Positions 3,622 through 43,372 of a stretch of 64,000 nucleotides of DNA are shown piece after piece. This DNA is from a virus (lineage: Duplodnaviria > Caudoviricetes): IMG/VR virus record IMGVR_UViG_3300005686_000008; one strand, written 5' to 3'. A program made the translations under genes and the position numbers. Each line of letters opens with the position of its first letter. Position 1 is the first letter of the stretch. The notes under the pieces were generated by a model that saw nothing but the letters and a program-made list of their open reading frames with translations, did no database searches and was not told where the DNA came from.

Positions 3622-3823
3622 AATGAGAATGAATAATAAAAAAAGATGCACAACCTATACCTGGCAATGCCCTATCTGCCGTAAAACCTATTCGGAACTT
3701 GTATCCTATTGCCAGCCCTGCCATAAAGCCGAAATAGATGATCCATCCCTCCGATATGCCGCTAACCCAAACGCCCGAAATATACCATCCAAACCTAAGA
3801 CTAAACTTCCCAAAAGACCCTGA
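3622..3823 (+). CDS. small zinc-ribbon protein
   Basis: CPIC...CQPC; start MRMNNK. Confidence 0.55.
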
Positions 3824-3829
3824 TACCCT

Positions 3830-4123
3830 ATGCAAACACCCGTTCTCTCCAAAGTAGTCGTTTCTCCCCAATCAATCCAGTTTTTCGCGCAAAAGAAACT
3901 CGTCGCCAGTATCACCCCTACCTCCATCAACGCCCCAGCTTCTAAACACAATAAGAACCTGATACCCTACCCAAGACAATCTACTAGCCTCCAACTGTCC
4001 TCTAATATCCTCTCATTCTCCTCAACCTCCTATGCTGCCACTGATTCCTTCAATATCGCTATTGTACCTAATGACCTTAAAGAACAAGTTTCTATAGCTA
4101 TCGCAAAGGAACCCTCCCCATGA
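3830..4123 (+). CDS. hypothetical protein
   Basis: ATG 31 nt after a GACTAAACTT motif (3799). Confidence 0.55.
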   Translation: MQTPVLSKVVVSPQSIQFFAQKKLVASITPTSINAPASKHNKNLIPYPRQSTSLQLSSNILSFSSTSYAATDSFNIAIVPNDLKEQVSIAIAKEPSP

Positions 4124-4297
4124 AACCAATCAAAGATTATCTCAAAGACCCGCCCACAATGTTCCTCGTTGTTATCTCTATCTTCTTCCTCTGTACAATC
4201 ATCAATCTTGCTATTAGTATCCTCCACCTCTTCATTAATCACTAATCCTTCAAAACCTTCGAAAACTTTATACTAGGAAATCTTACAGGAAAGTTTT

Positions 4298-4747
4298 ATG
4301 AATATCAAAATGTATATCAAAAACCTGTTCAAGAAACTCTTTATTTCGGAGAACCCGTTCTATCCGTTCAAGGCGGCAATCGCTATCTTCTGTATCATCC
4401 TTCTTGTTGATTATTGTATCATGGGAAGTCTCAATGTCGTTGTCTTCTTTATGTCTGCTATGACCCTCGCTACAATGTTCCCAATCTGCTTGTATAATGA
4501 ACGCCTGCTCCAAGAAAAACAACTCAGAGAAATACAAGCACAAAAAGAACATCTTGAACTCGAAAAATCTATCAAGTATTGTATGGAAATGAATAATGTC
4601 ATTCGAGAAGAGAATAGTATAAAATCTCCTGACACTGAATCGAAATGTTCCACTGCGCAAGCCCAGATTGCAAGTAGAGAAGAAAGCGGTAGGTTTCCTG
4701 CTCCTAAAGGAAGATGGCCCACTGTTTACCGAGATTCTGACCTCTAA
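4298..4747 (+). CDS. hypothetical membrane protein
   Basis: 2 TM segments followed by a coiled coil. Confidence 0.65.
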   Translation: MNIKMYIKNLFKKLFISENPFYPFKAAIAIFCIILLVDYCIMGSLNVVVFFMSAMTLATMFPICLYNERLLQEKQLREIQAQKEHLELEKSIKYCMEMNNVIREENSIKSPDTESKCSTAQAQIASREESGRFPAPKGRWPTVYRDSDL

Positions 4748-4892
4748 ATGAGGTTTTTGTTGGTAAAGTTTATACTACTTCTACACTTTGCTACACTTTG
4801 CACCACATAACGACACTTTTCGTATCTATACCCGCTTCTCTCTTCCAGTAACTTTTCCCGCTTTCATCAAAATATAACACAGGAAATAATAG

Positions 4893-5192
4893 ATGATTCC
4901 CCCAACTCTTTCTCCCCTCTTTGTTTATTCTTTCATCTATGTTGCAATGGGCGCTATTACAGCCTTTGGAGTTACCTCTCAAGATGAAGAATCTGCTCAG
5001 CCCGTTCCCTCTTGGACTTTCTTATTGAGCTTCTTCTTTTGGCCCGTCTTCATCTTTGTTTATTTCTTTCTAACTTTGCTTACAGCCGTCCATAAAGGGC
5101 TTGAGCTTGCTAATACGCTATGGATTCAAAAATCTTATGGTAAAACGTCTTTTTGGGCCATCCTCAAAGACCTTTCAAAGGACAAAAAATGA
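4893..5192 (+). CDS. hypothetical membrane protein
   Basis: hydrophobic helices, FFWP motif. Confidence 0.6.
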   Translation: MIPPTLSPLFVYSFIYVAMGAITAFGVTSQDEESAQPVPSWTFLLSFFFWPVFIFVYFFLTLLTAVHKGLELANTLWIQKSYGKTSFWAILKDLSKDKK

Positions 5193-5860
5193 GAATACGC
5201 AGGGTACAAGTAGAATGGTCCACTGGTAAGGCGAACCTTGATCTTCGCAATGAAGCGGGTTTACCATTATCTCTTGTGGGGATTGTTGGGCCTAACGGCT
5301 CGGGTAAGAGTTTATTACAATTGCTAGCACTGCGCTGTTTCAAGAACAGCATGAGTCCTAACACTGTTTTCCTCGATTGGGATGATGTCTCTGGTAGCGT
5401 AGAGATGGAATATGGCGGGGCCATAGCAACAGCGATTGTTCATAATGGCAAGATAGTGCAAAACTTAGTATTTCCAAATATGACGGTAGACAAGATGAGG
5501 ATGCAGGGAGGGGTACTTGGGTATACTCGTCATAGGTTCTCTTGGGAGTTAGCTCGTTGGGGAGAGAGCAACGAGATGGGGTTAGGGGAGAAGGGCATAA
5601 CATCTATCCTTCATGATTTGTACAAGGGCGATATTAGGAATAGCGTGATATGGGTTGATGACTTTGCTATTGGCTTGGATAAAGAGAACTCTTCCAGGTT
5701 CCTGCAAACTTTGATAAAGAAGTGTTTAGAGAAGAGCAATCAGTTGATATTTAGTACAACTGGGAATGCTGGGGTAGGGGAGTCTGGGGTATCAGTTGAG
5801 TGTACAAGGTTCTTAGCTGATAAGGTTGATCTTGTATCTACTGTCTTGAAGAAGTTATGA
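5189..5860 (+). CDS. ABC/AAA-type P-loop ATPase
   Basis: Walker A GPNGSGKS, Walker B-like IWVDD, LIFST. Confidence 0.75.
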   Translation: MRIRRVQVEWSTGKANLDLRNEAGLPLSLVGIVGPNGSGKSLLQLLALRCFKNSMSPNTVFLDWDDVSGSVEMEYGGAIATAIVHNGKIVQNLVFPNMTVDKMRMQGGVLGYTRHRFSWELARWGESNEMGLGEKGITSILHDLYKGDIRNSVIWVDDFAIGLDKENSSRFLQTLIKKCLEKSNQLIFSTTGNAGVGESGVSVECTRFLADKVDLVSTVLKKL

Positions 5861-5986
5861 CTAGCACTGATTCCACTAAATTGGTTTCTTCTACAAAGGA
5901 AGAAATGGAGGAGATGCTTCCACTGCGCTGTTGTTCCACTGCGCCTCTGGGACTAAACTTTCTTTTGCGCGAAAAAACTGATTCCA

Positions 5987-6721
5987 TCAAAACTTATAGT
6001 AACGGTCTTGATGTTCTTGGACATCTCGGAGGAACTGGTCCTTATCATCTCTGATTTTGAACTTAAGTCCGGCATTCAGTCGCAGTAGGTTTTCGGTCAA
6101 GCGAGAGACACGATTGGACCCATCTTGGAAGGGTTTGATACAGGCGATTCCGAGGGACGTAGTATAAATCTTACGTTCCAAGTTTTTCCAATCTGATTCT
6201 TCCATAAGTCTGGGGTTATCGAGTTGGTCTTTGATAGAGAGTACATAGGAGGAGTAATCTTGGAAGAGGCTGATGAGGAGAGGTTGGATTTGTTCTGGGG
6301 GAGGCATTTGGCGATGGCCCAGGGACTTTTCATGGATACGGTATTGACCGAGTTCATCTTTGGAGGGATAATCAATGGAGTTAATAAGTTCTTCTCCCTT
6401 TTTCCAAAAGTCATGAAGTAAGTTCTTATGAAGTTGTTTCAACCACGGGAACTGTGAATCGAAGTTCTTCATTGTTATAAGATTTGCTTTTGGGAACAGG
6501 TTTGGATTTTCAGCAAGTTGTATAACAAGGTGGATACATCTCATTTGACCTGATACGGCTGGATGCGCTCTACCCTGGAAGAGCAGGTTAGATTGGACTT
6601 CTTCTCGTTTCATGAAGATTCTTTCCATTTCATTAGAGTGGAGGATGAAGTCTATTTTTTCATCTTCTGTTACTTCCGGGAAGTAGCGTCTATCGAAGTC
6701 AGTGATTGGGATAAGTTCCAT
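5987..6721 (-). CDS. Fic/Doc family protein with non-canonical active-site motif
   Basis: HSNEME N-terminus, LHKNLL, GQYR, KPFQDGSNRVSR versus canonical HPFxDGNGRxxR. Confidence 0.8.
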   Translation of the reverse strand: MELIPITDFDRRYFPEVTEDEKIDFILHSNEMERIFMKREEVQSNLLFQGRAHPAVSGQMRCIHLVIQLAENPNLFPKANLITMKNFDSQFPWLKQLHKNLLHDFWKKGEELINSIDYPSKDELGQYRIHEKSLGHRQMPPPEQIQPLLISLFQDYSSYVLSIKDQLDNPRLMEESDWKNLERKIYTTSLGIACIKPFQDGSNRVSRLTENLLRLNAGLKFKIRDDKDQFLRDVQEHQDRYYKF

Positions 6722-6894
6722 ATTTGTTAATATCGGCCTTTCGTTGGGCGAAGTTTGGCAGGCACGATAGGGTAATCGTTATGAGTGTGGGGAAGGGGTT
6801 TGTTTGGCGTTGAAATTCTTTTGTGGAGCGCTTGCTGGTGGCTTTTCGGTTGCCTATAGTTCGTATGATGGGAGAGGTCGTTGGAGCTTTCGTT

Positions 6895-7566
6895 ATGGCA
6901 AAAAGTCGTCAACTGTACCTTGATGTTGCTTCGCATGCGGAGATTCCTCTAGCAAACAGAAAAGAGGTTGTTTCAGGAAGGGGCGGGGAGCTTAGGGTTC
7001 CTCGCCGTTATCATTTGAAGGCGGACAAGCTTATTGCTTTGCGCAATCAGATGAAGGAATCTGGTCATTTCATATCTCCTTACGGGGCGAATCGTCTCTA
7101 CACATTTATCATTGAGGCCTTATCCGAGTTAGGGACGAACAAGCCTCACGCATGCAATGTGGTATGGGAGAAGTTCAAGGAGGTAGCATCTCGTCCTGGG
7201 ACGACGAAGGCAGGGAAGACGGCGTGGGAGCGTTTTTCTGAGCGTCCCAGTCGCAGCGCGACGACCGGGCTTGACGATTTTTCTCGGTTTCTTCAGAACC
7301 TTGAGGTACTTCAGAGGCTTGGGGGAGATCATCCTTACGGGTTCAAGCTATCGCAGGTGGGCGCTTGTATTGACATCTTGATGGACATTGAGACGGGGAT
7401 GAAGGTACAGCTTCGGACTGGGATTACTGATGGCGAGCCTGTGAAGCCTGTTAACATGAGTCGTAAGAGGGTATATAAGAAGACGGTTGATTTCATTCCT
7501 GCTGGAACGTTGATTGATGCGGTCTTTTCTGATGACGAGGGGGCTTCAGAGGAGTCCGAGGACTAA
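6895..7566 (+). CDS. hypothetical protein
   Basis: long ORF, GGAG upstream; its TAA stop is part of a GACTAAACTT motif. Confidence 0.7.
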   Translation: MAKSRQLYLDVASHAEIPLANRKEVVSGRGGELRVPRRYHLKADKLIALRNQMKESGHFISPYGANRLYTFIIEALSELGTNKPHACNVVWEKFKEVASRPGTTKAGKTAWERFSERPSRSATTGLDDFSRFLQNLEVLQRLGGDHPYGFKLSQVGACIDILMDIETGMKVQLRTGITDGEPVKPVNMSRKRVYKKTVDFIPAGTLIDAVFSDDEGASEESED

Positions 7567-7700
7567 ACTTTTTTGGCGGAAAATTAGGCTATCCGTTCGC
7601 TCTCGCCATGAGCGGATTCTTTGGACCCCTAGGGAGTTTCTCTGGGGGTCTTTTCTAGACAGAGAGAGTTTTCAGGTAGCAACATATAGGAATCATTCGT

Positions 7701-8729
7701 ATGGGACGGAAGAGCGTAACGGTTCCAAAGGATCAGGGCGCTGGGTTATCGAACGAGCAGCGGATTGGGGTATTACTTCAGCACACATGCGACAATGATA
7801 GCGTCTTCTATGCATTATGTCGGATGAGGCCAAATCTTGCTGCGATTGAGGACAACGAGACGCGCCGGCGGTATGCAAGGAATCATGGCGTTGAGTGTCC
7901 TGCATTTGACGCAATATTCCATCAACGGTTACTAGAGCAGATCCGCAAAGTCAAGTGCAAATACATGGAGGAAGTCAGGAAGGATGAGGTTCTGAAGCCT
8001 TCCAAGAACGACGATGGCTCGGCTGTGAAGGTTGCAGATATTGAGATTGCTGACATTCCGAGGTTTAGTCTGGGCATTCCGGCTTTGGACCAGATTTTGG
8101 GGAAGGATGACAAGACCGGCATATATGGGATGCCGAAGGGGTCTTGTCTTATTTTCGGCGCGGAAAGAGGAACTGGCAAAACCAGGCTATCAGTAGAGGT
8201 AGCATCTCATGTAGGAAGTCCTTGGCGTCACATCGACGCCAATGGCAATAACGGCGTTTTGTATATTCAGAACGAGGAGAAGCTTTCCGTCTTCAGGGCA
8301 AGGGCTGCGAGGTCTTGGACGGATGAGCATAATATTTGGGTTTCTTCTTCTGACAATCTACTTCAGCATCAGTTTCTGATTGACAAGCACAAACCGAAGC
8401 TTGTGATTATTGATTCGATGCAGGATACGGTTCAGGCTCGTTATACTGGCGGCTTGATCAATATGTTAACTACCTATAAAGCGATAGCAGAGGATACTGG
8501 TATTTCTTTCTGGTTGATTTCTCACCTGACGGTAAAGGGGACCATCAAGGGAGGGAGTTATCCTGGGCACAAAGTGGACATCGAGTTGATTGCAGTTCGG
8601 AACAAGGAGGACAAGGGGTTATTTGATGTATCTTGTCCTGTGAAGAACAGGTACGGGGCTACGAACATTGTATCTACCTTTAGGCATACTGACTCTGGGG
8701 TTCGGTTTGTAGCGATGAGAGAGACCTGA
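7701..8729 (+). CDS. RadA/Sms-like RecA-fold ATPase
   Basis: GIPALDQILG, GAERGTGKT, LYIQNEE, IIDSMQ, KNRYG (RadA KNRFG motif). Confidence 0.8.
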   Translation: MGRKSVTVPKDQGAGLSNEQRIGVLLQHTCDNDSVFYALCRMRPNLAAIEDNETRRRYARNHGVECPAFDAIFHQRLLEQIRKVKCKYMEEVRKDEVLKPSKNDDGSAVKVADIEIADIPRFSLGIPALDQILGKDDKTGIYGMPKGSCLIFGAERGTGKTRLSVEVASHVGSPWRHIDANGNNGVLYIQNEEKLSVFRARAARSWTDEHNIWVSSSDNLLQHQFLIDKHKPKLVIIDSMQDTVQARYTGGLINMLTTYKAIAEDTGISFWLISHLTVKGTIKGGSYPGHKVDIELIAVRNKEDKGLFDVSCPVKNRYGATNIVSTFRHTDSGVRFVAMRET

Positions 8730-8757
8730 GTTTGGTTCTAGTTTGGGATTTTATATG

Positions 8758-8790
8758 AACAGCCTCCGAATAGGGGGCTGTTTTCTTTCT
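8758..8790 (+). terminator. intrinsic terminator
   Basis: AACAGCCTCC-GAATA-GGGGGCTGTT followed by T-rich tail. Confidence 0.7.
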
Positions 8791-9028
8791 AACTTTATGT
8801 TGCCGACTAAACTTTTGCGCGAAAAAATAAGGTTGTCGGATAGAATAGGATAAGAAGGGGTAGTCTAGCGGGCTAAACTTTCTTAGGAAAAAAGAAACTT
8901 ATCAGAAAGATGGACAGACGTAAAGATGCTGGCTAAACTTTCTGAGGCGAAAAGAAAGAATGTCAAAGTCGAGCGAAATGTAAGTAGCAATAACTTTGAC
9001 GGACGAATCCTTCTAAAGGAGAAAGCAA

Positions 9029-9682
9029 ATGGCGACTGAGCAGAACGGCGTAGCGGTAGCGGATGAGCAGGTGCAGTCGGTGGCGGCGGCTTTGGCGCAG
9101 TCCACGGAGTCGGCGGGGGCGGTTGCCCAGCCGGTGGTTGCGGAGGCGGTTGCCCCGGCGCAGACGGATGCGGGGCAGTTGGACGCGCTGCGGGCGCTGT
9201 TCGCATCGCTCGATGAGCAGCGGGACTCGTTGATGGAGCAGATTCGGGCGGCTGGCGGGACCACGGGGCGTCGGGGTCGTCCGAAGGGTTCCAAGAACCG
9301 CAAGCCCTCGAAGGCCAAGGCGAAGCCGAAGGCCAAGGCTGGCAAGCGGGGTCGTCCGGCTGGCTCGAAGAACAAGGCTCCTCGCGCCTCGAAGCGTGCG
9401 AGCAACGAGACTTCGCTGATTGTCTCGGTTGCTCAGGCTCTCAGCAATGCGAAAGAGCCGATGAACAACACGCAGATTTGCGAAGCGGTGGAGGCTGCGG
9501 GCTATCAGACGAAGGCCGGCTCCTTCAAGACGATGGTGGCGCAGTCGCTCGTCAAGCTCAACGGTCTGCGGGTTGGCAACAGCCACGTTGTGAACCGTCC
9601 CTCGCATGGTCACTACGTCGCTGGCAGCGGCATGGCGGCGTACCTCGCCGACCCCTCGAAGGCCGTTGTCATCGAGGAGTAA
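9029..9682 (+). CDS. nucleoid-like DNA-binding protein (AT-hooks plus winged-helix-like C-terminus)
   Basis: two GRPxGSKN AT-hook motifs, K/A-rich linker, strong SD AAAGGAG, terminator at 9706-9740. Confidence 0.75.
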   Translation: MATEQNGVAVADEQVQSVAAALAQSTESAGAVAQPVVAEAVAPAQTDAGQLDALRALFASLDEQRDSLMEQIRAAGGTTGRRGRPKGSKNRKPSKAKAKPKAKAGKRGRPAGSKNKAPRASKRASNETSLIVSVAQALSNAKEPMNNTQICEAVEAAGYQTKAGSFKTMVAQSLVKLNGLRVGNSHVVNRPSHGHYVAGSGMAAYLADPSKAVVIEE

Positions 9683-14360: not shown

Positions 14361-14378
14361 TTCCGCAGGCTAAACTTT

Positions 14379-14452
14379 GGCCCCGTAGCACAATTGGCAG
14401 ATGCACTCGATTTAAGGTCGAAGGGTTGAGAGTTCGAATCTCTCTGGGGCTA
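14379..14452 (+). tRNA. tRNA-Leu(TAA), short variable loop
   Basis: GGCCCCG/TGGGGCT, CTCGA-TTTAAGG-TCGAA. Confidence 0.8.
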
Positions 14453-14457
14453 TTCTG

Positions 14458-19751: not shown

Positions 19752-19946
19752 ATGGGTATGGTAAGCAAAGAACTGATGGAAGGCATGGAAGTCAACGTTT
19801 CCGCTCCCGAAGAGGGCGATTCTCATCCCGGTCCTTTTGTGGGACTGGTTGCTGGTATTCAGGAAGATACCATTCTGGTCAAGGATCAGGATGGAAACGT
19901 GTTTGAAATGGGCAAGGCGAGGGTCAAGCCGATTTCTGAGGACTAA
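19752..19946 (+). CDS. hypothetical protein (SH3-like?)
   Basis: packed ORF, stop inside motif. Confidence 0.65.
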   Translation: MGMVSKELMEGMEVNVSAPEEGDSHPGPFVGLVAGIQEDTILVKDQDGNVFEMGKARVKPISED

Positions 19947-19990
19947 ACTTTCCGCGCAAAAACGGAAGGTATCTCAAAGGGAACAAAGAA

Positions 19991-20167
19991 GTGAAGGATA
20001 ACAGCTTTTGGATTGTGGTTGAAGAGGGGAAGTCACTAGCGAGCGGAATTCGTTGTGACGGCGGAAAGTCGGAAGCCAAGAACCTCCGAAAAGAGATGGA
20101 ACAGCAGGGCGGCAAATGGAAGGCCCTGAAGACGACGAAGAAAGAGATTGTTTCCTCGAACGCTTGA
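19991..20167 (+). CDS. small hypothetical protein (58 aa, GTG start)
   Basis: read manually: VKDNSFWIVVEEGK...; AAAGGG SD. Confidence 0.5.
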   Translation: MKDNSFWIVVEEGKSLASGIRCDGGKSEAKNLRKEMEQQGGKWKALKTTKKEIVSSNA

Positions 20168-25522: not shown

Positions 25523-25713
25523 ATATGACATGGCGGCAACTCTTAGAGATTTTGTCCCAAATGCCTAACGAGCGTTTGGATGACAACGTAACCGTCTTCG
25601 TTTGCGGCGAGTTTTTCCCAGTGCTGAGCATAGGTAAGGTTGAGAACGACCAAGACGAAGAGGGCGGCGGAGTCTTGGACGACGGCCATTCCTATCTCAT
25701 CGTTAACGACTAA
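25519..25713 (+). CDS. hypothetical protein
   Basis: GAGG SD, stop in motif. Confidence 0.7.
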   Translation: MNMTWRQLLEILSQMPNERLDDNVTVFVCGEFFPVLSIGKVENDQDEEGGGVLDDGHSYLIVND

Positions 25714-25737
25714 ACTTTCTGCGCGGATAAAAGAAGT

Positions 25738-26268
25738 ATGAACAGCAACCTTGCCCAAGAGATTCTCCAAGACGCAGCTCGTCGCCTCGATGACAAGGGA
25801 GAAGGAGATGACTTTTCTCTTGAACAATGCGATGCGATTGCGAACGCTGTCAGTAAGGTTATGGAGGGCAAGGTCGTTGCTCGTTCTGCTGACCTTGACG
25901 GCATCTATAATGCGCTTGAGTACGCTTGCTCCTTCATCAAGGCTGGTCGTAAGGAGATGGACTCGACGGCTCGGGACCAGCTTTTGGTTGCGATGGAGCA
26001 AATCCGTCGCTATTCGAGGGGCGAACCCGAAGAGGGCGGCGAGGTTGTCCAAGACTCTTCGATCACATTCAAAGTTGATGATGTGCCGATTCGGGTTGGT
26101 AACGACATGAGGGTGGAGGCTTCTCTCCCTGACGGCGCAATGCTCGTTGTTGTTCTGACGCACGAAGGCATCATCATGGACTTTTGGCCCGAGGACGCAG
26201 ACGAGCCTGCGGCTACTTCTTCGATGATGTACGATGAGCAGGCTGTGGAGATGACAGAAGGACTATAA
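25738..26268 (+). CDS. hypothetical protein
   Basis: ATG 30 nt after motif. Confidence 0.75.
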   Translation: MNSNLAQEILQDAARRLDDKGEGDDFSLEQCDAIANAVSKVMEGKVVARSADLDGIYNALEYACSFIKAGRKEMDSTARDQLLVAMEQIRRYSRGEPEEGGEVVQDSSITFKVDDVPIRVGNDMRVEASLPDGAMLVVVLTHEGIIMDFWPEDADEPAATSSMMYDEQAVEMTEGL

Positions 26269-26735: not shown

Positions 26736-26776
26736 ACTTTTAGACTTGGTAGCTCAGTTGGTAGAGCAGCGGCCTT

Positions 26777-30070: not shown

Positions 30071-30688
30071 ATGACAGAAGCCAAGCAAAAGCCCGACCGG
30101 GTTATCCGGGTCACCAAGAAGACCTTGAAGTTCTGGCGCGAAAATCTGGCTCGCAAGAGTTGGAACCCCGAGTACCCCGCTGGCGAGGTAATCCAAGAGG
30201 TTGCCAAGACTTTTGGAGTCGCAGGAACGAGGTACGAGGTTGCGCTGAAGTTGGTCAACTCCGAGCCGGACCGGGCAAGAGAGGCTGGCGGCGGACTCGG
30301 AGAACCGTCTGGCGGGCCATACCTCGATGCGATTTTGTTCGCCGATGGTTCGGAGCAATGCGTTCTGCCTCCCGAGCGCGAGCAGCTTGACGGCGAGTAC
30401 GTTTTCCGCGATTCGGTTGAGAACCGCGACATCCGGGTTCTGGTCAAAGGTCCGGATGTGAAGAAGCATGTGCTTCACAGGGATGGATGGAAGACCGAGT
30501 GGTGGATGGAGGATGGAGAGGTTTGCGTTAGCGTCTATCGCAAGGAGTTCTCTCCTTCTGGTCCCTTCTATAGCGATAAGCCCTGCCTTGAGTGGAGTTT
30601 CCCAAAGGTTCCGGGCAACAACATCTTGGGCAATGCGGCTATCTACCTTGACCAAGCGATTCTGTACGCCAAGAATCCTCCAAACTAA
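30071..30688 (+). CDS. hypothetical protein
   Basis: long ORF, stop in motif. Confidence 0.7.
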   Translation: MTEAKQKPDRVIRVTKKTLKFWRENLARKSWNPEYPAGEVIQEVAKTFGVAGTRYEVALKLVNSEPDRAREAGGGLGEPSGGPYLDAILFADGSEQCVLPPEREQLDGEYVFRDSVENRDIRVLVKGPDVKKHVLHRDGWKTEWWMEDGEVCVSVYRKEFSPSGPFYSDKPCLEWSFPKVPGNNILGNAAIYLDQAILYAKNPPN

Positions 30689-30727
30689 ACTTTTTCCGCG
30701 CAAAGAAAAGTCAGAAAGGAACTCAAA

Positions 30728-31285
30728 ATGCCCGCCAAGACAACCAAGAAGACGACCAAGAAGGCAACCAAGAAATCCGCCAAGAAGACCAAGAAGGCCG
30801 CTCCTCCGCAGGAGAACTTCGGCAAGGTCTATATCAGCGCAGAGCAGGCTGGCAAGTTGGACGGCAGCGGAGATGGGATGGGCGAGAGTTTTTGGGTTGT
30901 CCTTCTGGACGAGAAGAACACCGCCGAAGTGCGCAACAACTGCATGTGCGGTCTTTGCGTCGGCGATGTGATTGAGTTCAAGGAATACGTCGAAGACGAC
31001 GGAATCCATCATCCGAGGGAGTTCGTGAAGGTCATCAAGCGCGTTGCGGAAGCCTTTGGCCTTTACTACACCTTCCCCGGTCTCAAGGGGAAGACTTCGG
31101 GCGATAAGTTCCCCGAGGACTGCCAAAAGCATCTGCATATGCTCAACGAGCATAACATCAAGTTCGAGGGGATGGTTCCTGGTCTCGCGAGCGTTTCCAA
31201 ACCCGTCGAAATGAGCGATGAAAAGTTCTTCGCTCTCCTTAACAGCGGCCCCATGACCTTCTCGACCTCCAAGATTGAGGACTAA
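30728..31285 (+). CDS. hypothetical protein with Lys-rich histone-like N-terminal tail
   Basis: PAKTTKKTTKKATKKSAKKTKK; AAAGGA SD. Confidence 0.75.
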   Translation: MPAKTTKKTTKKATKKSAKKTKKAAPPQENFGKVYISAEQAGKLDGSGDGMGESFWVVLLDEKNTAEVRNNCMCGLCVGDVIEFKEYVEDDGIHHPREFVKVIKRVAEAFGLYYTFPGLKGKTSGDKFPEDCQKHLHMLNEHNIKFEGMVPGLASVSKPVEMSDEKFFALLNSGPMTFSTSKIED

Positions 31286-32025: not shown

Positions 32026-32508
32026 ATGGAAAGCAACGTCACAACTTATTCTCGGGAAAGTTTCATCAAGTTGCTGAGCGACCCCAGCAAGGTTGACGCT
32101 TTCATGGCTTTGTTCAACTCTGCCGCCCTCATCGTTGGCGACTTCGATGACTATGGCGAGGTTTTGCAGAGCAACGAAGCAGGCATGTACGACGAAACAA
32201 CCAACATTGAAAAGCTGCGCGGAGCTATCAACCTCATTAGCCCCGGCATGGTTCCCGAGGGGGATTATCTTCCCCATTTGACAGAGCAGCAGCAGAAGCG
32301 GCTCGAAGAGGTTGCGGCTGAGGTTGTTGCGATTGGCGATGGTGTGGAAACCAAGCCTATAGAAGATGCTGCTTCTGAGGTTGAAACCATGACCCCGAGG
32401 GAACGGCTCGAAGCCACGGGCTATTGGGCAAGTACCGAGGACCGTCAAAGGAGCTTGCGGAAGCGGTTAGGATTCGACCCTGAAAATGGGGAAGAGTTCA
32501 AGGACTAA
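32026..32508 (+). CDS. hypothetical protein
   Basis: motif-to-motif cassette. Confidence 0.75.
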   Translation: MESNVTTYSRESFIKLLSDPSKVDAFMALFNSAALIVGDFDDYGEVLQSNEAGMYDETTNIEKLRGAINLISPGMVPEGDYLPHLTEQQQKRLEEVAAEVVAIGDGVETKPIEDAASEVETMTPRERLEATGYWASTEDRQRSLRKRLGFDPENGEEFKD

Positions 32509-32545
32509 ACTTTCTTCTCATCTTTTATAAGCAAGGAGATATTCA

Positions 32546-32887
32546 ATGTCCGAACTCATCAAGCCCCATGTCCTGACCGAAGCCGAAGCTTTGAAGCGCA
32601 TCAGAGATGCTATTGATAGCATGGACCTTGATGACCTTGCTTGTCTCGTCAGCGACGTTTGTGACACTGATGGACCTGTCGTTGTTGTCCATGACGGCTG
32701 CGAGGCCACGACCGCCGAGGAACTCGGAGCGGACGACACAATTCCCGTTTCTGCTGTCTACGAGAACGGCGAGAATGTCGGCGATTTGGCCGAGGATGGA
32801 ACCATCTACGGCGATGATGCGGAGGATGACGCGGACGAGGCCAAGAATCAGTCCGACAAGTCTTTCGGCGGGATGGATGACGACTAA
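32546..32887 (+). CDS. hypothetical acidic protein
   Basis: AAGGAG SD, stop in motif. Confidence 0.7.
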   Translation: MSELIKPHVLTEAEALKRIRDAIDSMDLDDLACLVSDVCDTDGPVVVVHDGCEATTAEELGADDTIPVSAVYENGENVGDLAEDGTIYGDDAEDDADEAKNQSDKSFGGMDDD

Positions 32888-34150: not shown

Positions 34151-34354
34151 ATGGGTAAAGTAGGGGAAACCCTCTCTGGCTAAACTTTGACCATTGAGCC
34201 AAAGGATGTTCAGAACTCAAGAACCACTCTAAGGAGCGAGTCAAGTGAGCAAGAAGACCCCTATCAAAGGCAAAAAAGTTGGGAAGACGGTGACTTTCCA
34301 AGCCAAGCCGAAGGTTGACCCCTTGACTAAACTTCCTGCGCAAAAGAAGAAGAT

Positions 34355-34496
34355 GCCGACATAGTTTATCCTGGTTAGAACAGCAATGTTTGACTCAAGT
34401 AGGAGCTAGCGCAGTTCTGAAAAGTAGTCAAACCGAGCCTTGGCGCAAAGGCGGGAAAATTGAAAGAAGGAGGTTCGATCCCTCCTGTCGGCACCA
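34355..34496 (+). ncRNA. enlarged tRNA-like RNA with the anticodon loop replaced by a branched domain; encoded CCA
   Basis: GCCGACA/TGTCGGC-ACCA, D arm, GGAGG-TTCGATC-CCTCC; terminator 34505-34530. Confidence 0.75.
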
Positions 34497-35075: not shown

Positions 35076-35076
35076 C

Positions 35077-36637: not shown

Positions 36638-36722
36638 ACCTCGTCGTCATGTCCTTGAGCGAGGCCCTGAGCAATCGGGGCCTTTCTCTTGTGACTAAAC
36701 TTTTCGCGCAAAGGAAAGTTGT

Positions 36723-37019
36723 ATGGCAACTGAACTGAAAATCGACAGAGAGAAAGCCAAGTCCGTTTACAGCGGCAAGGATGGCGCATGCTGCTGCGGT
36801 TGCAGCGGAACCCATTACTACGCCTCCAAGCACCGCGAAGAGGCCGGGAAGAGTCGTGGTTACAATGTTGAGGACAAGGAAATCAACGACAAGCAAGTAA
36901 CTCGCATCATCAACAAGATCGAGAAACTCGCAGCGGCAGGCGTCCAGATCGATACTGTTCCCGATGTCTACTTCTCCGCTGTTGAGGGCAAGCGGCTTTA
37001 CATTGTTTATTACAACTAA
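36723..37019 (+). CDS. conserved phage protein with YSGxxGACCCGCxG motif
   Basis: Cys cluster; motif-to-motif cassette. Confidence 0.75.
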   Translation: MATELKIDREKAKSVYSGKDGACCCGCSGTHYYASKHREEAGKSRGYNVEDKEINDKQVTRIINKIEKLAAAGVQIDTVPDVYFSAVEGKRLYIVYYN

Positions 37020-37473: not shown

Positions 37474-37683
37474 ATGAACGTCAACGATACCATCCACCGC
37501 CGCTGCCAAGATTGCGGAGAAACCTTTGAGGTTATCGACCCCGATTGCAAGGCGGAGGTTCGCTGCATTTCTTGTCAGGTGCAGTTCCGTATCACCGGCA
37601 AGACGGCTCTTGAGCGGTACGCCGAGGCTCTCGCCGAATCAATGAGCCAAGCCCTCCCCGCAAAGGAGAAGGTGTCATGCTGA
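37474..37683 (+). CDS. zinc-ribbon protein
   Basis: CQDC...CISC. Confidence 0.7.
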   Translation: MNVNDTIHRRCQDCGETFEVIDPDCKAEVRCISCQVQFRITGKTALERYAEALAESMSQALPAKEKVSC

Positions 37684-38114
37684 TTTCAGCCATCGAAGTT
37701 CAAGAGGCAAGGCAACGGCTCATCGCCAAGTACGGACAAGCCTATGGCCTACGGCGCGGCTGGTTGCCTCCAGAAGAAGCCGAGAAGCTGAAGGTCAAAC
37801 TGAAGGTCACTCGCAAGGAGGGCGTTCTGGGGCAGTTCTGTCAGCTCTGGCAAGGCAACGTGTTGGTGGTCGAGTCTTACATCTTCCCGACCCCAAGAGG
37901 AGAGTTCAAGAACGTAAGGGAGTTCATCGAGGCGAAGAAGAAGGAGTGGGAGATTGTCAACCTTCCCACCGAGAACGACCCTCGGTATTACGTTCGCTTG
38001 CTCGCTGTTTATCAGTCAATAGGAACGATGTCGATGGGTTGTGTTGTCGAGGGAGGCAAGAGCGTCGATTGCTACACCGTTGACGATTTGATTGCGGTTG
38101 GCTTTGCCGACTAA
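37677..38114 (+). CDS. hypothetical protein
   Basis: ORF, stop in motif. Confidence 0.7.
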   Translation: MLISAIEVQEARQRLIAKYGQAYGLRRGWLPPEEAEKLKVKLKVTRKEGVLGQFCQLWQGNVLVVESYIFPTPRGEFKNVREFIEAKKKEWEIVNLPTENDPRYYVRLLAVYQSIGTMSMGCVVEGGKSVDCYTVDDLIAVGFAD

Positions 38115-38138
38115 ACTTCCTGCGCAAGGAAAGTAGCT

Positions 38139-38618
38139 ATGAACAATAGCAAACACCGCCAGACTCTCAGCAAGGCAGCTCTCATCGGTCGGCTCAACGG
38201 CATCATCGCCCGCATGGACCGTAACCGCGATGCTTACTTGTGTTCCCACAAGAAGACAAGGGACGCTGACACTGGAAAGCTCCCCGCCGAACTGCTCGCC
38301 ACTGATTTCGCAGCGGCCCAGGCTGAGCTTGAGGCGTTGCACCGCGAGGTCAACACTGATATGGTCGAGGGGTCAACTCTCGAAGGGCAGTACGATAAGA
38401 GCCTTGTGGAGACAACCATCGCGACGGTCTTGGGCAAGGTTCAGCAGCAGTTTGGGCATCAGCCGAACATCCTCGCTACCCTTCAGATGTTCGCGATGCT
38501 CCTTCAGTCCGAACTGTGCCTCAACGCTCATTTCCTCTTTCTCAAGACGGACGCCAATGTGGAGGACCGCATCAACCATCCGAACCTCTACGGTCTTGAC
38601 GGAAACCCCAAGCGTTGA
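38139..38618 (+). CDS. hypothetical protein
   Basis: ATG 30 nt after motif. Confidence 0.75.
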   Translation: MNNSKHRQTLSKAALIGRLNGIIARMDRNRDAYLCSHKKTRDADTGKLPAELLATDFAAAQAELEALHREVNTDMVEGSTLEGQYDKSLVETTIATVLGKVQQQFGHQPNILATLQMFAMLLQSELCLNAHFLFLKTDANVEDRINHPNLYGLDGNPKR

Positions 38619-38646
38619 CTAAACTTTCAGCGCAAGGTAGAATGGT

Positions 38647-38904
38647 ATGAGGTAATGCGGGTCTAACCCCGCTAGAGGATGCGTCCTCTATAGTATAAGC
38701 CGAAAGGCCAGAGAAATACCGCCTCTAGGGATTGGAACCCCTCTAAGAAATCCCCTCGTCGGTAGGTAGCCGAACAGCCGAACCCGAGCGGCAATCGGGA
38801 GTGTATCGCGCCGACCCTAAACAAGTCGGCTTATTTCTTTAATCCCTCTTGTTTCCGTTTGCGGAAACTCGCCGAGTTTAGGAAACTCACCCATAACCAT
38901 TACC
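38647..38904 (+). ncRNA. multi-hairpin ncRNA (~255 nt)
   Basis: starts at motif +30; GGTAATG/CATTACC closing helix, about 9 internal helices, no ORF. Confidence 0.7.
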
Positions 38905-39156
38905 AGACGCCAACATAATCGTTATGAGTGAAATAGTGTTCCAACGGGTTTCAGTGTCCGGATCCCGGATCCGGGTGACCAGTCTCAGGTCAACCGGGTG
39001 TCCGGGTGTCGTAGCCAGAAATTTCTGCGCAGAAACAAACTCCGAACAACCCCAACAGACTAAACTTTCCAATAATCCAAACAGACCAAAGCCTCAACAA
39101 TCCCAACAGACTAAACTTTCCTCGCAATTTTGCAGAGTACCCAATAGGAGAAACCC

Positions 39157-39912
39157 ATGAAACTCATCAGCCGCAAAGAACTCATCGAACGCCTTTACAA
39201 TCAGACGACTCAGACCATCGTTTCGATGGTTTGCGTTACCGAGCCTGACATGAGGGCGAAGGCAATCATCGAAGCCGTCGATATCGCCGTCCCCCAACCG
39301 AACCCCTACCGCATCGGCAAGGGCAAGGCAGCGGTTTCGACCATCAGCAAGGTCTTAAAGGTCAACGGCAAGATTAACGACCGCTACGAGCGCGTCGTTA
39401 CCAACAAGGCCAAGCGCATGATTATCGCCGAGCGCGAGGCCGCGAACCTTGCTCCGCTCTCGCCCGAGCAACTCGATGCAGCAGCGGCGGCGGTCCCCGA
39501 CTTTGGGGAATCTTGGCATACGCCGATTCTCGATGCCGAGGGCAAGCCGACTTGTCTCAGCGTCAACCGCAAGACGCCCGAGAACGGCAAGGTTTATATT
39601 CGGTTCATCTTCAAGGCGAAGGGCGAAGCCGAATACGTCAACAACGACAACGGCGCAACCGAACCGAGCGAGAACGTCTACCCATTCCTCTCTCCCTCAT
39701 CCGACTACAGCAATCAGAATCTCGCCGAGGGCGATGAAGTCCGTTTCGTCGTCTATGACGTTGCCAATATCGCCGAAATCGCGCTTGGCGGCGAACGGCT
39801 CCGCATCCTCGATACCCTCGCCGAACAGTCCGAGGGCATGAGGAATAAGGTTTGGGCAATCGCCGAGGAATACTTGGAGGGCGAACGGAGCATGAGCAAG
39901 GTCGGCAACTAA
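39157..39912 (+). CDS. hypothetical protein
   Basis: AGGAG SD, 251 aa. Confidence 0.8.
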   Translation: MKLISRKELIERLYNQTTQTIVSMVCVTEPDMRAKAIIEAVDIAVPQPNPYRIGKGKAAVSTISKVLKVNGKINDRYERVVTNKAKRMIIAEREAANLAPLSPEQLDAAAAAVPDFGESWHTPILDAEGKPTCLSVNRKTPENGKVYIRFIFKAKGEAEYVNNDNGATEPSENVYPFLSPSSDYSNQNLAEGDEVRFVVYDVANIAEIALGGERLRILDTLAEQSEGMRNKVWAIAEEYLEGERSMSKVGN

Positions 39913-40100
39913 CGCCGGCTAAACTTTCCCCAACCCTCAACCCCAATCGTTTGTCTCCATTGGGGACCGAACGCCAGCCTTACAAGGTTGGCGTTTGGTC
40001 ATTGCAAACACTGAATCATTATGAGTGAAATAGAACAGCCGAGCAAACATTAGCCGACTAAACTTTCAGCGCAGAATTGAGAAGTAACGAAAGGAACCCC

Positions 40101-40514
40101 ATGAACAGCCGCAACCATAACGATGACAGCCTTAACGGTCATGGCTTTTTCGAGCATGACATTCCTTTTGGACAGCCCGAACTCCAGCCCGACAAGGCTA
40201 CGGCGGTCATCGTCAAGGACAGGCCGAAGGACGAAACGAAGGGGCAGCGTCCGCATGTCGTTCTCGTTTGGAATGACCAAGAACATTCGGAATTGTTCGT
40301 CATCGGCGTTCTCATGGAAGTCTGCAAGATGAATTTGCAGCAAGCCATCCAAACGACCATGAAGATTCATGCCGAAGGCAAGGCGGCGGTCATCGGCGGA
40401 TTGTTGGAGTATTGCGAGTTAAAGAGGGACCAGATTGCAACCTTCCGCGATGCCCTTGTCATCTCGATGGGAGGCCCCAACGTCCCCCTCAACGTTACGG
40501 TCGCGGAGGCATGA
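40101..40514 (+). CDS. clpS: ClpS-like adaptor protein
   Basis: VLVWNDQEHSELFVIGVL...TMKIHAEGKAAV. Confidence 0.8.
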   Translation: MNSRNHNDDSLNGHGFFEHDIPFGQPELQPDKATAVIVKDRPKDETKGQRPHVVLVWNDQEHSELFVIGVLMEVCKMNLQQAIQTTMKIHAEGKAAVIGGLLEYCELKRDQIATFRDALVISMGGPNVPLNVTVAEA

Positions 40515-40676
40515 GGCGCAGCGGACTAAACTTCCGCTAGAAGGTACTTTCATGGGCGGGGTATTGAAGCGGCTCTCGGCGAGGCCGCTCTACCCCTTTA
40601 AGCCAACCGAATCGTTATGAGTGTAACGCCATCGCCGACCCCTCCAAACTAAACTTCCGTCAGCAAAGTTATAATC

Positions 40677-40892
40677 ATGGCAGCAGAACCAATCAACACG
40701 AAGCAGCCAGGCGATTGCGGATACGTCTTTTTCTTCCGCGGCAAGGAAATCGCCCTCTACGCTCCGAGCTTGGCAGCGGCAAAGGACAAGGCCGTGACGC
40801 ATTTCAAGGCCCCCAAGAGCCAACGGCATATGGTTCATGGAGGTATCGCAGAGGACAAGGACGGCAAGGAAATCGTCCATACAGCAGACTAA
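40677..40892 (+). CDS. hypothetical protein
   Basis: motif-to-motif cassette. Confidence 0.7.
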   Translation: MAAEPINTKQPGDCGYVFFFRGKEIALYAPSLAAAKDKAVTHFKAPKSQRHMVHGGIAEDKDGKEIVHTAD

Positions 40893-41002
40893 ACTTCTAA
40901 CTTTGTAATTCTCCGCGCATGGTTGTTTGTCTCGCCGACTAAACTTTCAGCGCAGAATTGCAGAGAGTTAGAACAGCCCAAACCCAATGAAAGGACAGAC
41001 AA

Positions 41003-41518
41003 ATGGCAAAGCTCGCTCTCCTCAACCTCGCCGCCTTCGAACTCGCCCGCCGTCGCATCGCCGAACGGAACATTACCCTTCCGAACGATGAACAGATCAT
41101 GGCTGGCAACTACAGCGTTCGCGTTTTCAACAGCCCCCGGCACAGCGATATCTACGTCATGCAACTTCTCTCCACCTTGTTCCGTACCCAACCGAACAAG
41201 GCGGCGGAAATCGCCCTCAAGATCCACGACAGCGGCGATGAGGGAGTTACAATCTTCACCGGCAGCCGCGATAACTGCCGCAACCTCATGCGGGCGTTGG
41301 CGGCTTGGGGCGGCGATGCCGCCGCAAACCTCGCCCTCCGCATCGACAATGACAAGGGACTGTACGCCGAAATGACCGACAACCGCAGCGGCGAAATCGT
41401 ACAGCGCAGCGGCGATGAGGATGAAGGGGCCGACGATGCCGCTCCCCAACTCGCCCCCGCCGTCGCTCCGCCCGTTCGCCCGCTCGATGCGGTTTTCGCT
41501 CGGCTTCTCGGCAACTAA
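41003..41518 (+). CDS. divergent ClpS-like protein
   Basis: YSVRVFNSPRHSDIYVMQLL...AAEIALKIHDSG. Confidence 0.65.
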   Translation: MAKLALLNLAAFELARRRIAERNITLPNDEQIMAGNYSVRVFNSPRHSDIYVMQLLSTLFRTQPNKAAEIALKIHDSGDEGVTIFTGSRDNCRNLMRALAAWGGDAAANLALRIDNDKGLYAEMTDNRSGEIVQRSGDEDEGADDAAPQLAPAVAPPVRPLDAVFARLLGN

Positions 41519-41710
41519 ACTTTCCTCGCCAAAGGAAAGTAGTAAAGGACAGGCAAGGGACTCTGCCTCCGAGACTCGTTCTCGGAGGGGCGTTCAGAGG
41601 ACAGCGGACGGGAAGTAACGCGCCCGAGCCGCACTTGCCATTTAAGCCAATCTAATCGTTATGAGTGAAAGCCGCATCCGAACTAAACTTCGCGCAAGAA
41701 AGTTATAAGC

Positions 41711-41920
41711 ATGGGACTCGGAAAGAAAATCGACGGCAAGTATCAACCCATCAGTAATTACGAAGGCTCATGGGCCGACGTAATGAAGAAGGCAAGAGAA
41801 AGAACTCGCCGCGAAGCCGAGAAGGACAAGAGGCCCTCATCCTTGCTCGCCTACGAAGGAGTCCATACCCTCTCCAACGGCGTCAAGGTTGAGTTTACAA
41901 ATACCAACCGCATCGACTAA
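41711..41920 (+). CDS. hypothetical protein
   Basis: motif-to-motif cassette. Confidence 0.7.
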   Translation: MGLGKKIDGKYQPISNYEGSWADVMKKARERTRREAEKDKRPSSLLAYEGVHTLSNGVKVEFTNTNRID

Positions 41921-41944
41921 ACTTCTAGGGGAAGGATTAGAAAC

Positions 41945-42262
41945 ATGGTAGACTACAATGCTCCATTGTTTCAGCATCCCCAAGAGACTTGGGACAAGGC
42001 GAAATGCGAGAAACTCGCCAAGTATCGCCATGTCGATGCTTTCGGAACCAAGCAAAGCCGCAAGGGGTTTCTAGGCTCGGGCGCAGCCATCCCCGCAAGG
42101 TTCGGCATAACTCGTTACAACGGAGGATGCGAGCGTAATGGCGAATGGTGGCAAGGCGAGAATTTTCCCTTCCCCATCCTTGCCGAAGGGTTTGAGATTG
42201 TTTACGTTCTGACTTGGGGATGGTACATTCAACGTAAGGCAGGCAGCCATGAACGTCAATGA
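41945..42262 (+). CDS. hypothetical protein
   Basis: ATG 30 nt after motif. Confidence 0.7.
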   Translation: MVDYNAPLFQHPQETWDKAKCEKLAKYRHVDAFGTKQSRKGFLGSGAAIPARFGITRYNGGCERNGEWWQGENFPFPILAEGFEIVYVLTWGWYIQRKAGSHERQ

Positions 42263-42440
42263 TGGAATTTTCTACCTCTACTCCGACGATGAGAAGGGGT
42301 TTTGGAACAACGAGAGCGGCTGGGGTTCGCTCGAAACGGCGCAAGAGTATTTGGAGGAGGACTTGCATGGGTACATCCCTAAAGGTTCTCGGTTCGTTTC
42401 CGCAAGCGAAGCCGAAACCCTTTGCGATGACCCAAACTAA
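42249..42440 (+). CDS. hypothetical protein
   Basis: FWNNESGWG; stop in motif. Confidence 0.65.
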   Translation: MNVNDGIFYLYSDDEKGFWNNESGWGSLETAQEYLEEDLHGYIPKGSRFVSASEAETLCDDPN

Positions 42441-42481
42441 ACTTTCGCGCAGGTACTTCTAGGTAGAAAGGACTCTATCCC

Positions 42482-42721
42482 ATGAAGGTTGAAATCCGTC
42501 ATCTCAAGACCCTCAGCCAGCCCAACGGCGAACTCATCGAAATCGTTGAAGTTAACGCCCAAACCATGAACGCCGAACAAATCCAAACAAAGGTTGGTTC
42601 GGCCCTCATCAGCAAGGGCATCGAACTGTTCGGCTCCGAATTCCAATCGGTCGGCAACAACTCCATCTTCGGCGGTTACGTTCGTAACAAGGCCAACGGC
42701 GAATGTATCATCGCCGTTTGA
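42482..42721 (+). CDS. hypothetical protein
   Basis: AAAGGA SD. Confidence 0.7.
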   Translation: MKVEIRHLKTLSQPNGELIEIVEVNAQTMNAEQIQTKVGSALISKGIELFGSEFQSVGNNSIFGGYVRNKANGECIIAV

Positions 42722-42858
42722 GGAGAAACTAAACTTCCGTCGCGGAAGTTAAGAGTATGAAATACAACTCTACTTTCTGCGGCTCGCAAACTCCCCCAAC
42801 TTGGCGTTGGGGGAATCTTTTTGCGCCAGGCTAAACTTCCTGAAAAGAAATGAGAAGC

Positions 42859-43071
42859 ATGGCAACTCAAACAGTCAAATCTCGTTCAAGCAAGCCCCGT
42901 TCAAGCAAGCGGACCCATCTCAACATCAATGTTTCTCTCGAAGTCGATGATGTTGTCAGAGTCGCCGGCTGGCATAAAGCCAACCACATGCTCAACCGCG
43001 TTCTCGCCTTCGCTGCAAACAACAAGGGACGCATCAGCCTCAAGGTAACAAAGCCCACGACGAAGGGCTAA
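42859..43071 (+). CDS. hypothetical basic protein
   Basis: ATG 30 nt after motif. Confidence 0.65.
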   Translation: MATQTVKSRSSKPRSSKRTHLNINVSLEVDDVVRVAGWHKANHMLNRVLAFAANNKGRISLKVTKPTTKG

Positions 43072-43180
43072 CAACGGAGCATGGTACGGGTAAAGGGCGA
43101 GCAGCCTAACCCAGCCCGCAAGGGTATGGGTTCCGTACCGATTTAATGAGGACTAAACTTTCCTTCCAACAATCAAGAGC

Positions 43181-43372
43181 ATGTTGAACTGGAACATTGA
43201 CAAGATGAGAGGGGCAGATAAGAACAGCGTTGAGGTTCAGCTCTTCAATGCAGAGAACGCTCTCTCAAACTGGCGCGAGGATGTAGCGAAAGGGTATTGC
43301 CGTTATGATGCTGGCGAGGAGAGGAAACTCAAGGCGAAGATTAAGGAACTGAGGACTAAACTTCCCGGCTAG
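43181..43372 (+). CDS. hypothetical protein
   Basis: ATG 30 nt after motif. Confidence 0.65.
   Translation: MLNWNIDKMRGADKNSVEVQLFNAENALSNWREDVAKGYCRYDAGEERKLKAKIKELRTKLPG

Follow-up and report, generated by a model that had tools for sequence, protein, structure and literature searches.

The 64,000-nucleotide stretch analyzed here (hereafter the window) corresponds to bases 222598-286597, read on the reverse strand, of one IMG/VR viral contig of 370,652 bp (G000), which is ~73% complete by the CheckV estimate. The + strand of the window carries nearly all of its large open reading frames (ORFs), and 17 of the 25 tRNA genes on the contig lie within it; further genes on the contig specify a large terminase, tail fibres, and giant virion proteins. 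A search of GenBank phages returned no close relatives of G000, and its bacterial sigma factors, Shine-Dalgarno (SD) sites, and bacterial-type tRNAs indicate that the host is bacterial. Our subject is a short word, CTAAACTT (hereafter the box), that stands before a large number of small genes in the window and that is probably a promoter private to this phage and its kin. A literature search for the word itself returned only primers.

The initial annotation of this DNA had described about 65-70 co-oriented copies of the word, and this description holds: there are 68 exact matches to CTAAACTT on the + strand, between positions 3801 and 43363, none on the minus strand, and none in the window past 43363. 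Dinucleotide shuffles gave a mean of 2.7 matches and a maximum of 8. Over the whole 370-kb contig the word occurs 91 times on the + strand and 12 times on the minus strand, the + copies beyond the window comprising 21 scattered over 84 kb upstream and only 2 in the 243 kb downstream. The [GA][AG] prefix that had been proposed is likewise real, as two purines (R) directly precede the word in 68/68 copies (G59/A9 at the second base before it and A52/G16 at the first), and a pyrimidine (Y) follows it in 66/68. The extended word R-R-CTAAACTT-Y-C amounts to ~20 bits. In the dense region we found no one-mismatch variant with the same context or with an ATG at the characteristic spacing described below, and the 8-mer is effectively invariant. 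The box-rich block (window 6000-44000) has a G+C content of 47-56%, compared to 37-41% on both flanks, and a raised G+C content (45-46%) is likewise seen in three related genomes (G001, G002, and G008).

Throughout, offsets are counted from the C of the box, such that 28 nucleotides (nt) after C equals 30 nt after the first motif base. Two of the relatives, G001 and G002, were found by an exact-pattern scan of IMG/VR and come from one metagenome. Their synteny with G000 covers window coordinates -40 kb to +31 kb, at a DNA identity of 65-80%; G001 (74.6 kb) has 41 co-oriented copies of the box, 12 of them with an ATG at 28, and G002 (57.2 kb) has 35, with an ATG at 28 in 15. Relatives with the same box architecture show 61-74% protein identity.

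In the window an ATG begins exactly 28 nt after C in 26/68 copies, while the next commonest offset has n = 5. All 26 such positions listed in the initial annotation are correct, and a pyrimidine precedes the ATG in every case (26/26 in the window and 55/55 pooled over G000, G001, and G002), as compared to 39% at 122 confident SD-led starts of G000. Across five related genomes, an ATG stands at 28 in 57-59 of 188 units, depending on whether a 45-codon ORF is required. The same step of a pyrimidine at 27 followed by A at 28 (Y-A) recurs in 37 of the 129 boxes in the five genomes that lack an ATG at 28, against a background of 11% (p = 7e-8), and it is present at all seven SD-led sites for which a Y-R step had been noted earlier. 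First plausible start codons fall at 28 in 47 cases, at 26, 27, or 29 in 11, and at 30-39 in only 4, followed by a broad SD-led class from 40 onward; an SD-like tract precedes the start in 14/47 (30%) of the ATG-at-28 class vs 56/69 (81%) of the SD-led class. In the shortest SD-led units the SD starts at position 28 (box 32505) or a few nt past it (boxes 31282, 30685, 35846, 40058, and 42437), and never earlier.

This geometry is maintained between diverged genomes. Among orthologous units of G000, G001, and G002, the 20-nt spacer between box and ATG differs in sequence and is constant in length, as at the unit at 25708..25740, where the box TAA stops the upstream ORF. The sequence past the ATG changes by synonymous substitutions and in-frame codon indels; as it evolves as coding sequence, the ATG is the true start codon. 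Switches between predicted leaderless and SD-led orthologues arise by insertions after position 28, with the Y-A step retained. At the unit comparable to that at 38619 in G001 and G002, the ATG reads ATA in one genome, and the Y-A step is again retained. Two independent tRNA-like 5' ends also lie at exactly +28: one is the window RNA at 34355, whose Rfam match starts precisely 28 nt after the motif C, as the initial annotation had it, and the other is the 5' exon of an intron-bearing tRNA in G001. Collectively, these independent lines most likely place the start of the RNA at position 28. The features concerned are listed in Table 1.

Table 1. Box-associated units of the window and genes discussed in the text. 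Positions are window coordinates except where a locus number (L) is given.
Feature	Position	Strand	Details
Array of 68 co-oriented RRCTAAACTTYY boxes, ~1 per 580 bp	3801..43363	+	47-56% G+C vs ~38% in rest of genome
Typical predicted leaderless unit	25708..25740	+	box 25710-25717, 20-nt spacer, T directly before ATG at 25738, 176-aa ORF
Shortest SD-led unit	32503..32548	+	box 32505, C-A at 32532/32533, putative RNA starts AAGGAG, ATG 32546
SD-led unit with predicted leaderless orthologue in G001 (ATG at +28)	30683..30730	+	box 30685, 15-nt leader AGAAAGGAACTCAAA inserted after kept C-A at +27/+28
SD-led unit with GTG start	19941..19993	+	box 19943, 20-nt leader; G002 orthologue has ATG at +28, then same N-terminal codons
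Three tandem boxes (8807, 8873, 8933), no ORF between	8807..8960	+	upstream of HATPase-domain gene
Terminator and putative promoter pair	36661..36725	+	10-bp G+C-rich hairpin and T-rich tail 36661-36684, box 36695, ATG 36723
Similar terminator/box pairs	8757/8807, 9705/9757, 22834/22877, 36978/37016, 42792/42831	+	
Box, then 139-nt tRNA-like RNA	34327..34493	+	RNA 34355-34493 = motif C 34327 + 28; Rfam tRNA, 38.8 bits
Box, ATG-AGG-TAA at +28, then structured non-coding sequence	38619..38655	+	
Exception: box abutting 5' end of tRNA-Leu(taa), offset 8	14370..14453	+	same in G001
FliA-like sigma gene	L001:1000-1830	-	
Divergent 302-aa sigma gene	L002:826-1734	-	
SigH-like sigma gene	L084:1051-1842	-	
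ECF sigma gene	L083:1411-1986	+	
IF3 homologue gene	L079:1459-1989	-	outside the window, at window coordinate ~+252.6 to +253.2 kb
1008-aa protein gene	60825-63851		
SNF2-family helicase gene, 1043 aa	63876-67007		

The boxes are tightly packed against the genes before them. An ORF of at least 50 codons ends no more than 40 nt upstream of the box in 44/68 copies, and in 26 of those 44 (26/68 copies) its stop codon is the TAA within the box itself. As upstream ORFs end at or near the boxes, the intergenic space is essentially the box plus 20 nt. Where the box TAA is the upstream stop, the ATG at +28 lies in the same reading frame, 9 codons on.

From these motif statistics, the geometry, and its conservation, we infer promoter activity and an exact start point. 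The reading that we favor, at a probability of roughly 70%, takes RRCTAAACTTYC as the only specific element in a promoter private to the phage, located at -28..-21 and with a Y-A start. The products would be leaderless mRNAs together with short SD-led mRNAs and a number of tRNAs or non-coding RNAs. The box would be bound at about -30..-19, either by a DNA-binding factor specific to the lineage or by an unrecognized polymerase, and RNA polymerase so placed would start at the pyrimidine-A step 20 nt past the final T of the box. If +1 is at 28, the word spans -28..-21 (box center -24.5), that is, the TATA-like distance proposed in the initial annotation and not -10 or -35. The region between box and start would be easily varied: it is purine-rich, with C nearly absent from -12 to -3, and it shows no -10 consensus, only biases toward A at -11/-12 (~65%), T at -8 (~42%), and A at -6 (69%). 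The earlier description of a frequent GCGC followed by a purine run thus stands for the purine run and fails for GCGC, which is found in only 20/68 copies (GCG or CGC in 31/68). Where the +1 A is also the A of the ATG, the product would be a leaderless mRNA, and a large share of the window units (26/68, ~40%) would be of this kind, as had been predicted. A leaderless mRNA needs its own 5' end, which would account for the presence of a separate box at nearly every small gene. In the other units, either an SD would lie 0-6 nt from +1 or the transcript would start as a tRNA-like or non-coding RNA.

Several observations weigh against this reading. A second Y-A peak lies at 14/15 (29/129 sites), where RNA would start if TAAACT were read as a -10-type element, and ~30% of the ATG-at-28 sites have an SD-like purine tract upstream. 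Some tRNAs start 8, 17, or 33 nt after a box, so those boxes cannot be the promoters of those tRNAs if +1 is at 28; at the unit at 14370..14453, for example, a start at +28 would fall inside tRNA-Leu, and the box is therefore not the promoter of that tRNA. No homologue of a phage RNA polymerase, TBP, MotA, or AsiA was found for such a promoter in the searches described below, and we know of no sigma-70-family geometry that fits a sole specific element at -28..-21.

The first two of these points could be accommodated if the box were instead a -10-type element, with TAAACT keeping T-12, A-11, and T-7, read by a small phage sigma as at T4 late promoters. RNA would then start 7-8 nt on, at the C-A step of GCGC-AAA (position 15), and the ATG-at-28 class would carry a constant 13-nt purine-rich leader, into which the SD-like tracts at 14 of the 47 sites would fit. 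A -10-only phage promoter, in which the word ends 5-8 nt before +1, would need +1 at ~15, where a minor Y-A peak is seen, the remaining positional data favoring 28. The G11-C12-G13-C14 and A run present in half of the ATG-at-28 sites resemble a discriminator and +1, and the single-box phage promoters of AR9 and phiKZ end ~6 nt before +1 (PMC5312081). However, a -10-type element leaves unexplained why a pyrimidine precedes the ATG in 100% of cases and why Y-A recurs at 27/28 in SD-led units, and it does not account for a leader fixed in length to the nucleotide across diverged orthologues, for the near-empty offsets 30-39, for SDs that never start before 28, or for tRNA-like 5' ends at 28; GCGC, moreover, is found in just the 20 of 68 copies noted above. 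We consider this alternative unlikely.

Position relative to terminators bears on whether the signal acts in DNA or in RNA. Strong intrinsic terminators end 11-24 nt before at least six boxes (8807, 9757, 22877, 36695, 37016, and 42831), and T-rich hairpin tails also precede boxes 21533, 23577, and 24218 as well as several boxes in the relatives. A signal directly behind a terminator must start RNA, not cut it. Of the traits expected of promoters in general, three are seen here, namely, standing at the head of transcription units, being strand-locked with the genes, and following terminators; the fourth, initiation of RNA, is predicted. It might still be argued that the word acts in RNA as an endoribonuclease site, such that polycistronic transcripts would be cut 20 nt downstream at the Y-A step, freeing leaderless mRNAs and RNA 5' ends. 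Many boxes do follow the prior ORF without a terminator, and the box TAA is the upstream stop in the 26 copies described above, so that read-through RNA would contain the word; Y-A is a common cleavage step, and one box abuts a tRNA 5' end. Yet little read-through RNA is expected at the boxes behind strong terminators, and cutting at a fixed 20-nt ruler from a short linear word is not known RNase behavior, whereas promoters do work in this way. Nor does RNA structure lend much help. A hairpin after the box, in the manner of an N4-like hairpin promoter or a structured RNA element, is striking by eye and against simple shuffles; we dropped it as an explanation, as the 22 stems of at least 6 bp compare to 12.7 with mismatched 5'/3' partners and mostly reflect positional composition, largely a pyrimidine run and then a purine run. 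Processing of this kind therefore appears very unlikely to us.

The promoter reading does not place the box in a standard bacterial class. Membership in the sigma-70 class (-35 TTGACA and -10 TATAAT, 16-18 bp apart) is not supported, there being no conserved hexamer at -12..-7. Consensus promoters of the sigma-70 type show no enrichment over shuffles in the box region and form no strong cluster anywhere in the contig, and an immediate-early class read by the host is therefore not evident.

G003 (333.6 kb), whose terminase is 73% identical to that of G000, has 5 copies of the box, only in its last 1.5 kb, the contig breaking at the edge of the dense region. More distant relatives were found with a profile of the HATPase-domain protein encoded downstream of the tandem boxes, an arrangement that is kept in G001, G002, G008, and the loci L080 and L081. 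G008 (100 kb, 53% identical) carries a different word, CTAGACTT, in 24 forward and 2 reverse copies that keep the -28 distance to start codons. The small metagenome contig L081 also carries CTAGACTT, and L080 carries CTAAACTT. Each genome thus has one allele only: CTAAACTT in G001, G002, G003, and L080, and CTAGACTT in the sister lineages G008 and L081. This concerted change points to a co-evolving, lineage-specific protein that would read the word. In the distant G004 (187 kb, L055-L064), with a large terminase 47% identical, neither motif nor any other fixed-offset word was found. That genome is dominated by strand-locked short repeats, for example CCACTATA (165 to 0), which presumably reflect repetitive coding or a fibre gene.

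The comparison of G001 with G002 also suggests that gene content changes at the boxes. In one direction, 8 homology breaks between the two coincide with a box or lie no more than 35 nt from it, vs 1.6 expected, and in the other direction 4 do so, vs 1.5; breakpoints between G001 and G000 showed no enrichment at boxes. Different genes lie behind the orthologous boxes at G001r 64154 and G002r 49338. These data suggest an exchange of cassettes at repeated promoters, similar to that of promoter-early stem-loop (PeSL) elements. If the word served chiefly to shuffle small genes, as a site of recombination or a cassette boundary, and were no expression signal, the excess of breaks near boxes would follow directly, and the PeSL promoter-terminator cassettes of T4-type phages do behave in this manner (PMC2839356). 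We give this view very little credence, as no integrase or resolvase was found, and as it leaves unexplained the nucleotide-exact ATG spacing, the Y at -1, and the strand lock; in PeSLs, shuffling is a by-product of repeated promoters.

As to what might read the box, the initial annotation had proposed a single-box promoter with a fixed start, served by a phage RNA polymerase or sigma factor. The promoter-like behavior and the start 28 nt after C are borne out as far as sequence comparison goes, but neither proposed reader could be substantiated. Searches with the RNA polymerase domains of Pfam (RNA_pol, Rpb1_2, and Rpb2_6) gave no match in G000, G003, G008, G001, or G002, and no phage RNA polymerase was found in the 370 kb of G000 or the 333 kb of G003, which is estimated to reach ~90 kb beyond the end of G000. 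The 20 large ORFs compared with PHROGs or Pfam, including all of those >1,700 aa, contained no RNA polymerase. DFDGD is the metal-binding motif of two-barrel RNA polymerases; a DxDGD scan found the sole DFDGD of the genome in a 221-aa ORF with no Pfam match (L036:9214-9879, minus strand), where it probably occurs by chance. A search of the phage proteins for TBP gave no match, and the word is not TATA-like and the genome has bacterial sigma factors, all of which sets the box apart from archaeal or eukaryal promoters with a TATA box and initiator (Inr). MotA and AsiA homologues were not detected in searches whose controls were silent as well.

Sigma factors are encoded in the clade (Table 1), though none accounts for the box. 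G000 encodes a complete FliA/WhiG-family sigma (E = 2e-53), which raises the question of whether the word could be a -35 element (TAAAGTTT-like) for a FliA/sigma-28-like factor, with a start ~34 nt after the T. TAAACTTT does resemble the Escherichia coli sigma-28 -35 consensus, TAAAGTTT. A sigma-28 promoter, however, consists of TAAA, ~15 nt, and GCCGATAA, with +1 ~8 nt beyond, and while the word has TAAA, positions 20-27 read T-R-A-A-A-R-R-Y and contain no GCCGATAA-type -10. Transcripts starting near +34 would also lack their ATG in the leaderless class and their SD in the shortest SD-led units. Finally, elsewhere in the genome GCCGATA boxes make up a set of their own with a strand bias of 24 to 5, and these are a candidate promoter class for the FliA-like sigma, apart from the box considered here. 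We regard recognition by such a factor as highly improbable. The divergent 302-aa sigma of G000 was rejected as the likely reader since it is absent from the syntenic place in G001, which uses the same box. The ECF sigma gene of G008 is flanked by genes for a RelA/SpoT-like protein and a PRPP synthase; at the syntenic place, G000 encodes a membrane protein and no such sigma. G003 has a SigH-like sigma in the region beyond the end of G000. From the gene content compared, the sigma complement varies within the clade, and none of these factors can be tied to the box.

Immediately past the box-rich block lies a gene for a 1008-aa protein of no known family with weak helix-turn-helix matches (Sigma70_r3 and TrmB, both below cut-off), adjoining that of a 1043-aa SNF2-family helicase. 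A protein-atlas look-up of the 1008-aa protein gave nothing usable. The reader may be an injected factor, or it may be encoded in the part of the genome that the contig lacks.

Further observations concern the surroundings of individual boxes. Fragments resembling the 5' half of a tRNA (acceptor stem and D arm) occupy the interval from a box to a complete tRNA gene, in the window at 26743-26775 (with tRNA-Lys at 26776) and, in a like position before tRNA-Met, in G002 (reverse-strand 47970-48005). At the equivalent place in G001 lies a tRNA split by a group I intron (L015:11846-12061, Rfam 61 bits). Upstream of the window, near boxes, are genes for a Ro60/TROVE homologue (vWA_Ro60, E = 2e-52) and for a RelA/SpoT-like protein with a Clp_N-like N-terminus (L036:11305-13011 and L037:7468-8448, both on the minus strand).

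When the box regulon is used, and to what end, can be addressed in outline. Its early expression is plausible, given that it consists of small genes without known function and tRNAs in one block. The initial annotation had further suggested that leaderless messages allow translation while SD-led initiation is shut off; this fits badly, as the rest of the genome uses AAGGAG at -13 and many units of the regulon are themselves SD-led. The phage also encodes a full-length IF3 homologue of 176 aa (IF3_N and IF3_C) in the SD-led part of the genome. IF3 disfavors leaderless initiation, and the phage protein may therefore bear on the regulon through a late switch away from leaderless messages, which we put forward as an idea. 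In its most far-reaching form, the promoter reading would hold that a clade of ~0.5-Mb phages runs a ~90-unit regulon by a TATA/initiator-like mechanism new for bacteria, in which a factor ~25 bp upstream, either injected or encoded by a gene invisible to profiles, fixes the start without -35 or -10 elements; many products would be leaderless, and the phage IF3 could later lower their translation. We consider this full version speculative and unlikely.

If 5' ends map at +28, the box would define a promoter of a bacterial virus whose sole specific element lies 20 nt from the start, pointing to an unrecognized factor or polymerase. Across a clade of uncultivated huge phages, transcription units and true start codons could then be annotated from sequence by a rule, and CTAAACTT and CTAGACTT would form a promoter pair that is both compact and orthogonal. 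As one promoter would serve both leaderless and SD-led units, and the phage has an IF3 gene of its own, temporal control at the level of translation is a further idea.

The box shares features with several known systems without matching any one of them. T4 middle promoters have a MotA box centered at -30, depend on sigma appropriation, and need a good TAnnnT -10. Here, too, a phage-specific box upstream of the -10 region would replace -35 recognition, but the box is centered at -24.5, there is only the weak A(-11..-12)/T(-8) bias, and MotA and AsiA were not detected, the search controls being silent. Archaeal promoters combine a TATA box with an initiator, and leaderless mRNAs are frequent. 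The 8-bp box near -25, the purine pair upstream of it, the Y(-1)R(+1) initiator, and the frequent leaderless mRNAs predicted here are reminiscent of these promoters; unlike a TATA box, however, the word is not A/T-rich, and no TBP was found, such that the likeness would lie in the mode of action and not in family membership. The PeSL cassettes of T4-type phages have sigma-70-like -35/-10 promoters and SD-led genes (PMC2839356). As in those cassettes, each of the small genes, mostly of unassigned function, is flanked by a promoter repeat and in many cases by a terminator, and the repeats coincide with gene-content breakpoints, whereas the units described here have one box at -28..-21 and many of the genes would be leaderless. 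Jumbo phages AR9 and phiKZ have their own multisubunit RNA polymerases and promoters whose consensus ends 6 nt before +1, untranslated regions span 26-491 nt in AR9, and phiKZ showed no leaderless transcript (PMC5312081, PMC8244752). Common to both systems are invariant phage-specific words, almost no tolerance of mismatches, and a defined +1 purine; in contrast, we found no multisubunit RNA polymerase, and the box is farther from +1.

The closest precedent for the predicted leaderless messages is Thermus phage phiYS40. Its promoters are reportedly -10-type elements a few nt before the ATG, used by the host RNA polymerase in a phylum that is itself said to have leaderless mRNAs, while the sole specific element here ends 20 nt before +1 and the rest of the genome has strong AAGGAG sites. 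According to Sevostyanova et al. 2007, as summarized in PMC3594737, middle and late transcription of phiYS40 is leaderless, with a large share of mRNAs starting at the start codon and a fixed distance from promoter to ATG, as we predict for the box regulon, and IF3 is down-regulated, the opposite of the late role suggested above for a phage-encoded IF3. Leaderless phage transcription is thus already known, and the general phenomenon is not new. The system described here differs in four respects: a strict predicted Y-A initiator lies 20 nt past an invariant box, ~90 units per genome would be involved, two co-varying alleles exist in sister lineages, and no recognizable reader was found.

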